A DNA stretch of 44,255 bases from Escherichia phage vB_EcoS_GZMU_E2010: the sequence record PV845598.1; one strand, 5' to 3'. This document shows positions 634 through 777 of this stretch, piece by piece. The position numbers were made by a program, and so were the translations under genes. The notes beneath the pieces were generated by a model. The model saw only the letters and a program-made list of their open reading frames with translations. It was not told where the DNA came from and ran no database searches. Numbering within the stretch: position 1 is the stretch's first letter; every line of letters begins with the position of its first letter.

Positions 634-777
634 CAATAGACTTTGGCCCTTCCGAATGCGGGCAGCGACACTACACTCAGTGCTAACGCACCGCTCCGTT
701 CTCCTGCCGCACCGCGGTCGCTTGTTCATACTTCACAAGCTCAGGTGGAGCTTAGCATATTTTTAGTGAAAAGTCAA
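634..777. repeat. ~143-bp dispersed repeat, copy A
   Basis: 712-777 is identical to 31474-31539 (66 bp); 634-711 aligns to 31397-31473 with ~20 differences. Confidence 0.9.

Follow-up and report, generated by a model that had tools for sequence, protein, structure and literature searches.

What is the element that Escherichia phage vB_EcoS_GZMU_E2010 carries twice, at 634–777 and again at 31397–31539 of sequence record PV845598.1, and what might it do at both places? The window analyzed here is the whole 44,255-nucleotide record, a complete Kagunavirus-type genome (Guernseyvirinae) with a unit length of 44,128 bp; positions 1–127 and 44129–44255 are the same 127 bp, the window being a circularized or terminally redundant assembly. 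With this 127-bp overlap excepted, the element is the longest internal direct repeat in the genome. A preliminary description of the sequence took it for a structured regulatory element, read from the minus strand and associated with a promoter, and considered a promoter cassette or a replication or packaging site as well. Covariation and promoter conservation support a structured element that is read from the minus strand and fused to a promoter. On comparative evidence, the element qualifies as a genuine structured RNA motif, well supported and not described before. Promoter-proximal leader RNA at the heads of phage operons is a known kind of element, and this one is unrelated in sequence to the known examples.

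Each Copy Begins at a Conserved σ70 Promoter

The two copies are identical at 66 of 66 positions between 712–777 and 31474–31539, as first described. Their other part (634–711 and 31397–31473) has indeed diverged, but at fewer places than the roughly 20 initially counted: 16 of 79 aligned columns differ, through 13 substitutions and 3 one-base indels. Beyond the repeat, patchy similarity between the two loci reaches about 501 and 31287. The opposite edge, at 777/31539, is sharp; it coincides exactly with the first base of a −35 hexamer, and the sequence upstream of it is not shared between the copies.

The window was classified by whole-window and local BLAST, which matched Kagunavirus and Jerseyvirus genomes. 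Homologs were gathered from IMG/VR with two sequence patterns and the i-spanin protein, together with the whole genomes of phages Schulenburg, Jersey, and Bas74, and this collection yielded 40 distinct core sequences. The minus-strand TTGACT (777–772), 17-nt spacer, and TAAGCT (754–749) that had been reported for the repeat are found in both copies; the TGn ending of the spacer, an extended −10 element, had been overlooked. Among 34 distinct Kagunavirus-type promoter variants parsed by script, the −35 hexamer TTGACT is present in 33 and the −10 hexamer TAAGCT is invariant. The spacer is AT-rich, 17 nt long, and variable, except that its last three bases are always TGn, with C, A, or G as the third. 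Since the functional positions are kept while the filler varies, the promoter is a real one, and each copy, judged by this conservation, begins at a host-type σ70 promoter with an extended −10 element. In Jersey-type promoters the −35 hexamer is TTGACT or TAGACT and the −10 hexamer TACGCT, separated by 17 nt of which the last three are TGT or TGC; the weakened −35 (TAGACT) in many of them hints at activator dependence.

At copy B the promoter is joined to a perfect palindrome, AACTATTCGAATAGTT, whose presence we confirm. It shares 2 nt with the −35 hexamer, occurs only once in the window, and is conserved in Kagunavirus B loci; we regard it as a putative regulator site. Its half-site, GAATAG/CTATTC, recurs in the genome: besides the palindrome at −41.5 of promoter B, it occurs in the −10/+1 region of a family of early promoters and in the spacer of the replication-gene promoters (both described below). 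A single phage regulator might repress the early promoters and activate the late one. The sole clear DNA-binding protein found is an HTH_3 protein (4037–3822, minus strand). Farther upstream of promoter B, at 31554–31600, two direct repeats of TTATTCC and an inverted GGAATAA are conserved in Kagunavirus and Jerseyvirus, as compared in the equivalents from Jersey (L058) and L095–L104.

A Covarying Fold Is Read from the Minus Strand

The element RNA is about 100 nt long, and its fold begins within about 3 nt of the predicted +1. In transcript order it comprises a 5′-terminal hairpin (P1), two unpaired bases, a 66-nt irregular hairpin, and a single-stranded tail. When 25 distinct versions of the long hairpin were folded singly, all 25 adopted the same architecture. 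At the base of the long hairpin every folded version has the invariant closing CCG/CGG, next to which are a bulged C and two G·U pairs. In copy A it runs from its base through CCG/CGG, the bulged C, GG:UU, helix P2a (UGCGG/CCGCA), helix P2b, and an internal loop (5′ GGAG, 3′ AGUGUA) to helix P3, which reads CGGUGC-GUUA-GCACUG. The corresponding parts of copy B are CCG/CGG, GG:UU, P2a CGCG/CGCG, P2b CAGGUAAC/GUUAC-G-CUG, the loop GGAG/AGUGUA, and P3 CGGGAC-GUAA-GUCCUG.

The structural proposal made from this genome was a 4-bp stem, GTGC-taac-GCAC at 680–691 and GGAC-ttac-GTCC at 31442–31453. Both versions are present and the stem is real, but as a unit it is too small, being the core of the 6-bp apical helix P3 in a far larger fold. 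The compensatory change between the copies is genuine and is one among many across homologs, and the stem is kept in the homologs from other genomes. P1 is GCUUGU/ACAAGC or GCUUGUG/CGCAAGC and, in Jersey types, ACGCU/AGCGU. P2a, which has a small internal loop above it, appears as CGCG/CGCG, UGCGG/CCGCA, AGCG/CGCU, UGCG/CGUA, and UGCGC/GCGCA, and P2b as GGUAAC/GUUACC, GGGAAC/GUUCCC, GGAAAC/GUUUCC, and, in Jersey types, CGCG/CGCG. The versions of P3 include GGAC/GUCC, GUGC/GCAC, GGGC/GCCC, GUGCC/GGCAC, CACG/CGUG, and GGGCG/CGCCC.

The fold was examined with a manually specified structure and a covariance model, whose alignment contains 80 hits representing 42 distinct sequences. This alignment is fitted to the structure and hence biased toward it; the single-sequence folds and the counts from a plain MAFFT alignment are free of such bias. 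Standard pairs occupy 95.3% of cells in the model alignment and 89.2% in the MAFFT alignment, and sliding the 3′ partners by 1–3 columns leaves 29%–40% and 29%–37% pairing, respectively. The covariation score is 0.315 versus 0.109 for shuffles in the model alignment and 0.194 versus 0.089 in the MAFFT alignment (0/500 shuffles in each case). Changes on both sides of a pair affect 15 of 29 pairs in the model alignment, compared with 10.2 in shuffles (0/500), and 7 pairs in the MAFFT alignment, where the number is not significant (115/500). MAFFT misaligns the variable stems, and RNAalifold run on its plain alignment accordingly found no more than the outer pairs. The long hairpin of copy B has a folding z-score of −3.0.

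The same data distinguish the strands. G·U pairs fill 122 cells of the model alignment versus 10 for A·C, and reading the opposite strand lowers the paired fraction from 95.3% to 85.4%. Predicted folding energies are −36.6 (copy A) and −38.3 kcal/mol (copy B) for the minus strand and −27.0 and −25.4 kcal/mol for the plus strand. From the G·U excess, the folding energies, and the promoter, we take it as settled that the functional molecule is the minus-strand RNA. The covarying G·U pairs make sense only in a one-strand RNA, which disfavors the replication or packaging site that had been proposed. A plus-strand small RNA ending at the terminator-like AAGCTC...GAGCTT hairpin and its T-run was also considered and was rejected, as the G·U pattern and folding energies favor the minus strand; the T-run beside this hairpin is the promoter spacer.

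The Most Conserved Nucleotides Are Unpaired

Conservation is highest not in the helices but in the nucleotides that the fold leaves unpaired: ACCG...CGGAAGG, the internal loop GGAG/AGUGUA, and the fixed 9-nt spacing to UAUUG. This pattern suggests that they form a recognition surface for a macromolecule. The asymmetric internal loop, 5′ GGAG and 3′ AGUGUA, becomes 5′ UGAA and 3′ GUAAC in Jersey types. By comparison, P3 is capped by a variable tetraloop or pentaloop, the apical sequences seen being GUAA, GUUA, AUUA, GUCA, UGUAG, and UCUCAA. The tail consists of UUCGGAAGGG, nine variable bases, and UAUUG, with zero indels in any lineage. It thus holds a Shine-Dalgarno-like GGAAGG, a fixed 9-nt gap, and then UAUUG (GGAAGGG-N9-UAUUG).

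In both copies (651–634 and 31414–31397, minus strand) and in the homologs, the reading frames that follow the UUG of this GGAAGG-9 nt-UUG arrangement are 0–10 codons long and not conserved; a stop follows the UUG directly (UUG-UAA) in L001 and the L002 A copy. The arrangement could be a ribosome loading site or the start of a tiny leader open reading frame (ORF).

The two copies do contain 36-codon minus-strand ORFs (ATGs at 729 and 31491) whose similarity is lost past codon 22, as had been pointed out; the loss is caused by an indel. Their status as a gene does not stand, since the ATG is absent in several lineages and one-base indels shift the frame between the copies and also between Jersey variants. 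All Jersey types lack the ATG, which lies in the P1 loop, and so do variants with GAGAUAUCG as the loop sequence. GenBank records leave the element unannotated or place it under short hypothetical ORFs; one record marks a promoter there. Small ORFs annotated over it include Schulenberg_008, _057, and _058, Bas74_0007, and Jersey gp08, and spurious-looking annotations on either strand occur at 6328–6438, 37869–38012, and 38040–38144 of L002, 5281–5391 of L123, and 7265–7456 of L058. The short hypothetical proteins annotated across the element are most likely spurious.

Copy B Is Ancestral and Copy A a Later Addition

Run on the window, the covariance model returns exactly two hits, 31504–31391 (138 bits) and 742–628 (118 bits), both at the heads of long minus-strand units. 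It finds two copies in phage Schulenburg and one each in Jersey and Bas74, where the single copy occupies the B position, upstream of a spanin-scaffold-capsid-tail operon. Jersey has copy B and no insert there, which argues against a promoter cassette that restarts transcription behind opposite-strand inserts, another early suggestion. By BLAST, the Kagunavirus-type element is present at 222 places in 180 records, so that about 40 records carry two copies, and the Jersey-type element occurs once in each of 268 further records, for a total of about 450.

This distribution ends with the subfamily. By capsid protein, about 460 records cluster tightly as Guernseyvirinae, and identity then drops without intermediates to 43%. 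At that level stands Serratia phage ZDD2, the nearest capsid relative outside the subfamily, which has no leader between its head-morphogenesis and scaffold genes. In IMG/VR, everything recovered by pattern scans was either a Guernseyvirinae contig of 40–45 kb or a shorter fragment bearing the element. The pattern matched 7 times among 185,579 genomes of bacteria and archaea, about the estimated chance number, and only one match scored with the model: a 738-nt contig of a Taishania pollutisoli assembly (L121, NZ_JACVEL010000048.1), which carries a Jersey-type element (63 bits), probably through contamination by a Salmonella-phage fragment.

Because copy B is found in nearly all these phages and copy A is lineage restricted, the distribution of sequences marks copy B as ancestral and near-universal in Guernseyvirinae and copy A as a later addition in part of Kagunavirus. 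The copies have exchanged sequence since. At the B locus of L007 the stems are of the A type; conversely, the A-locus promoter of the window and of L017 is of the B type, whereas L001, L002, and L029 retain a distinct A-type spacer. In view of such exchange, the 66-bp identity is best read as recent gene conversion, rather than extreme constraint.

Where copy A is lacking, a different strong promoter stands at the locus, with other long hairpins, a GC hairpin, and then the same early promoter (36400–36740 in Bas74, L123; 38840–39200 in Jersey, L058). In Bas74, Schulenburg, and this window, the hairpin of the A locus is flanked by the mutually complementary UGCCGUA and ACGGCAA.

The Leader Continues into a Second Hairpin

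About 45–70 nt downstream of the element, both copies have a GC-rich hairpin set on a lower stem formed by its flanks, which we call hp2. The GC-rich hairpins noted near 528–547 and 31311–31330 are thereby confirmed. In copy B, the GC stem with UUUACUUAU scores as terminator-like, and a Shine-Dalgarno sequence and the ATG at 31286 come next. Copy A hp2 lacks a clean U-tract and hence is not a canonical terminator; it is flanked by GUUUCU (593–588) and AGAAAC (506–501). Jersey-type hp2 combines UAUACG/CGUAUA with GCCCGGC/GCCGGGC, which L101 replaces by the compensatory pair GCCCGAC/GUCGGGC.

The flanking hexamers of copy A have counterparts in copy B, where AGAAAC (31292–31287) separates the i-spanin AUG from its Shine-Dalgarno sequence. 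Jersey-type leaders have GUAU and AUAC at the places of GUUUCU and AGAAAC. This complementarity, from two lineages only, is suggestive of a helix between the spacer and the i-spanin start region. Copy A retains GUUUCU and AGAAAC with no gene start behind them, and an independent promoter (468–440), about 270 nt downstream of copy A, drives the next gene. Copy A, copy B, and the Jersey type share the element but have completely different spacer and hp2 sequences.

Both Copies Head Long Minus-Strand Operons

A gene map was drawn from annotated relatives and PHROG matches, and the coordinates of the features are collected in Table 1. The replication genes occupy the plus strand from 874 to about 12,500. 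Copy A heads a minus-strand unit that runs from small early genes across the window ends to the lysis, terminase, portal, and head genes. Copy B heads a second minus-strand unit, with the spanin, scaffold, capsid, and tail genes. The minus-strand operons behind the two copies measure 12–19 kb and contain terminator-like sites at 28939–28918, 24544–24529, and 43282–43261, in addition to the leader-B hairpin at 31330–31311.

Table 1. Positions of the Element, Its Promoters and Hairpins, and the Genes of the Two Units in the Window
Feature	Position	Strand	Remark
Copy A −35 hexamer, TTGACT	772..777	−	Repeat starts here
Copy A extended −10, TGc + TAAGCT	749..757	−	Conservation; start site predicted from spacing at G742 or A741
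Copy A P1, GCUUGU-(9 nt)-ACAAGC	720..740	−	100% of cells pair
Copy A long irregular hairpin	652..717	−	Model 118 bits; P3 includes the 680–691 stem
Copy A unpaired tail, AAGGGCC-N-UCUAUUG	634..651	−	Conserved
Copy A hp2, lower stem AGAGAGUAC/GUACUCUUU, GC stem GGGUGGGC/GCCCACCC	509..567	−	z-score −5.0
Separate early-type promoter, TTGCAC-17-TACTAT	440..468	−	Downstream of copy A, outside the repeat; drives gene 414–214
Holin	41236–40928	−	In copy-A unit; endolysin next
Terminase	37649–35818	−	Copy-A unit; then portal, head morphogenesis, Hoc-like decoration gene
Bidirectional terminator	31930–31911		End of copy-A unit
Perfect palindrome AACTATTCGAATAGTT	31538..31553		Centered near −41.5 of promoter B; absent from copy A
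Copy B −35 hexamer, TTGACT	31534..31539	−	Sequence
Copy B extended −10, TGc + TAAGCT	31511..31519	−	Start site predicted from spacing at G31504 or A31503
Copy B P1, 5′-terminal hairpin	31482..31502	−	Folding and covariation
Copy B long irregular hairpin	31415..31479	−	Model 138 bits
Copy B unpaired tail, AAGGGCC-N-UCUAUUG	31397..31414	−	Conserved
Copy B GUUUCU	31354..31359	−	Complementary to AGAAAC (31292–31287)
Copy B hp2, lower stem GAUAAG/CUUAUC, GC stem GCCCCGC/GGCGGGGC	31301..31343	−	z-score −4.2
i-spanin	31286–30900	−	First gene of copy-B unit; scaffold next
Major capsid	30004–28955	−	Copy-B unit; then tail tube, tape measure, tailspike (to 12661)

The promoter downstream of copy A belongs to a family of four near-identical promoter-like sequences, TTGCnnACCnCAAnATAATAGGnTACTAT (TTGCAC-17-TACTAT), at 468–440 and 43167–43139 on the minus strand and 22478–22506 and 31606–31634 on the plus strand, each of which heads a short early or inserted (moron-like) unit. 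A motif matching this family was termed a "phage RNA polymerase promoter" in a Kagunavirus paper (PMC9825357). Despite this label, no RNA polymerase is encoded by these phages. A third promoter family, GTTGACnACCnAATAGCGAACTAnTATAGTTA (TTGAC-17-TATAGT, with a conserved spacer), precedes the replication-gene blocks on the plus strand, at 4101–4132, 6683–6714, and 10329–10360.

Several other features of the gene map were seen. A bidirectional terminator, AAGGCCCC-N4-GGGGCCTT, is present in three copies (12633–12667, 24523–24557, and 31907–31941), at switches of gene orientation. Immediately before the tape-measure gene, within the tail-chaperone region (21817–21794, minus strand), lies a very strong terminator-like hairpin, whose arms GGGGTGGGC...GCCCGCCCC are followed by TTTTT. 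On the plus strand, a 12-bp inverted repeat, GCTTGAAGTACC-N8-GGTACTTCAAGC, lies at 824–861, directly upstream of the first plus-strand gene (ATG 874), which encodes a 38-amino-acid protein with CxxC...CxxC motifs.

The Element Matches No Known RNA Family

At gathering thresholds, Rfam 15 gave 0 hits across the whole window; with E-values up to 10, the sole match in 480–800 was an 8-bit PhrS outside the element. A scan for tRNA and tmRNA found none. Rfam holds no put family, so its empty result is uninformative on any likeness to put. For that comparison, positions 24000–32000 of phage HK022 were searched with the covariance model, filters off, and the best score was 7.5 bits (E = 1.1); putL was located and read, and could not be aligned with the element. 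Comparison by eye with the RfaH ops, boxA, kink-turn, and sarcin-ricin motifs gave no convincing match. A description of the element was not found in Rfam, annotated phage records, or the searchable literature.

Candidate protein partners were sought by comparing 20 early ORFs with PHROGs and two of these plus eight other proteins with Pfam. No Q-like or N-like protein appeared among them; apart from one HTH_3 protein and an HNH endonuclease, every family matched was one of unknown function. Profiles of this kind could miss small N-like proteins.

A Possible Action on the Elongation Complex

Considered together, the promoter, the fold, the position of the element, the terminator-like sites behind it, and the interchangeability of its two copies are compatible with a model, which we favor tentatively and with somewhat less than even confidence, in which it is a cis-acting leader RNA that makes RNA polymerase resist pausing or termination, in the manner of put or nut. 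Each copy would form the head of a transcription unit, a σ70 promoter followed by a structured leader RNA of about 100 nt. The nascent RNA would fold on leaving RNA polymerase, and the invariant nucleotides of its internal loop, bulge, and tail would engage the elongation complex. The RNA might act unaided, like HK022 put, or together with a factor from the host or the phage, on the pattern of nut/N or conAn. A polymerase so modified would read through both the leader-terminal hairpin and the terminators within the 12–19 kb operons. Copy A supplies the strongest argument for an action on transcription. The genes adjoining it already have their own promoter, so that merely expressing them is unlikely to be what it contributes; the benefit probably lies in a property given to long read-through transcripts on their way across early-gene terminators to the lysis and packaging genes.

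The model draws on phage systems with the same general layout. In HK022, put occurs as a pair of paralogous RNAs, and each member directly follows the promoter of a long operon (PMC9378689). The element resembles putL and putR in occurring as two paralogous RNAs in one genome, each immediately behind the σ70 promoter of a long operon with internal terminators, and action in cis would be predicted for it; the bulged, internally looped hairpins, the conserved unpaired bases, and the lack of a recognizable dedicated antiterminator protein are further points in common. In contrast to put, which is about 70 nt with two similar stems and a triplex in stem I, the element is 97 nt with one short and one very long hairpin, and the two have no detectable homology in sequence or structure. 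HK022 is lambdoid, whereas the phage studied here is a virulent siphovirus, most of whose relatives have a single copy, and the activity of the element is predicted by analogy. For put itself, terminator read-through is factor independent and is lost with mutations in the zinc-binding domain of the RNA polymerase β′ subunit. Lambda nutL/nutR with N, and bipartite systems such as conAn, in which an RNA leader works with a protein, are likewise promoter-proximal RNA signals at two operon heads, and the element could similarly load a factor onto RNA polymerase; unlike nut, it has no boxA consensus on reading and no 15-nt boxB hairpin with a conserved loop, and the protein scans found no counterpart of N. 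The lambda PR′-qut-6S RNA-tR′ region also offers a parallel, with its near-consensus promoter, untranslated leader of ∼200 nt, and hairpin before lysis and structural genes. There the resemblance ends: the conserved feature here is an RNA fold and not a Q DNA site, the promoter spacer is variable, no Q family match was obtained, and no conserved −10-like pause hexamer near +1 was seen by eye across lineages.

Several observations weigh against an action on the elongation complex. As the model misses HK022 put, any likeness to put would be one of analogy, not homology. The palindrome at −41.5 of promoter B could give late timing without any RNA device, and a single copy suffices in most Guernseyvirinae. 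Behind the element, copy A and the Jersey types have hairpins that make poor terminators, their U-rich tails being weak and paired into a lower stem. Other features of the leader (the 5′ hairpin, the helix over the i-spanin start, and the Shine-Dalgarno-like sequence with UUG) point toward control of translation or stability. The failure to recognize a Q-like or N-like protein fits an autonomous RNA, as weak evidence. We found no experiment or transcript map on these phages in the literature.

These features lead to the explanation that we weigh most seriously besides antitermination, a leader for mRNA processing, stability, or translation, in which P1 would shield the 5′ end, the hairpins would be RNase III-type sites, and GUUUCU/AGAAAC would gate the first gene. 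P1 is suitably placed at the 5′ end of the transcript, hp2 lies a few nucleotides before the Shine-Dalgarno sequence, and in both lineages the spacer is complementary to the i-spanin start (GUUUCU/AGAAAC and GUAU/AUAC). RNase III sites of phage T7 (R1.1 type) are irregular hairpins of about 20 bp with an asymmetric internal loop. The leader has two irregular ∼20-bp hairpins with internal loops, of which hp2 is immediately upstream of a ribosome-binding site, a geometry compatible with cleavage that is itself conjectural; unlike the T7 signals, which are intergenic, the element stands at the extreme 5′ end of the transcript. However, a stabilizer would need P1 alone, so that the invariant loop and tail of the 66-nt hairpin would go unexplained, and cleavage in a 5′ leader leaves a monophosphate end that destabilizes the mRNA. 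Copy A, moreover, has no gene start behind it, the next gene having its own promoter farther downstream. We consider this explanation unlikely, although it deserves real weight. A discrete trans-acting noncoding RNA of about 200–230 nt, with the element as its 5′ domain and hp2, through termination or processing, as its end, might for example titrate a host or phage protein, with the second copy adding dose. It would account for the order of promoter, RNA, and GC hairpin ahead of an independent promoter at copy A, for the different promoter-plus-hairpin cassette at the same place in phages lacking that copy, and for the terminator-like score of copy B hp2. It is nevertheless rather improbable: at the B locus there is no promoter between hp2 and i-spanin, so read-through is required; an Hfq-type terminator tail is absent; and targets complementary to the conserved tail are not in excess in the phage genome (6 matches versus 3.6 expected, two of them the element itself).

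The remaining explanations have less in their favor. A riboswitch-like attenuator, whose fold would sense a metabolite, protein, or tRNA and so decide termination at hp2, is suggested by the layout, in which a terminator-like hairpin follows some 70 nt behind a structured domain whose unpaired bases are conserved. We give it little credence, as the copy A, copy B, and Jersey leaders reveal no consistent, mutually exclusive pairing between element and hp2 (by eye; no systematic search was made), the spacer and hp2 change completely among the three while the element does not, and Rfam offers no match even at E = 10. The transcript of a replication origin, with the promoter, structured RNA, and AT-rich stretch furnishing a primer or R-loop as at T4 oriF/oriG, would suit copy A, which adjoins divergently transcribed replication genes, and the 60–70 nt past the element look AT-rich by eye in both copies; but the universal copy B is located between head genes, and iterons or DnaA-type boxes were not noticed on reading the two loci, with no dedicated search run, all of which makes an origin very improbable. 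A function at the DNA level only, as a duplicated promoter or operator, or as the 36-codon gene, is hardly credible. An inverted repeat, AAGCTC-N5-GAGCTT, does span the −10 element and start site, and the small annotated ORFs do cover the element, but compensatory changes and strand-specific G·U pairs run 100 nt past the promoter, and the ORF is broken both by the loss of its ATG in the GAGAUAUCG P1-loop variants and all Jersey types and by frame-shifting indels.

Antitermination in cis thus remains the reading that we prefer. A stronger version of it, that the element represents a second, independently evolved family of protein-independent polymerase-modifying RNAs, put-like but unrelated to put, in virulent siphophages of Salmonella and E. 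coli, seems doubtful to us. Should the elongation complex prove to be its target, the element would join put as only the second such phage RNA family and could provide a compact part for terminator-resistant long synthetic operons. Even as a leader for stability or translation, it would mean correcting hundreds of genome annotations. Few therapeutic and biocontrol phages are isolated as often as the Guernseyvirinae (Jerseyvirus and Kagunavirus), and about 450 of their deposited genomes carry the element. Its late-operon promoter and covariation-supported fold offer a handle on late transcription in phages that have no RNA polymerase of their own.

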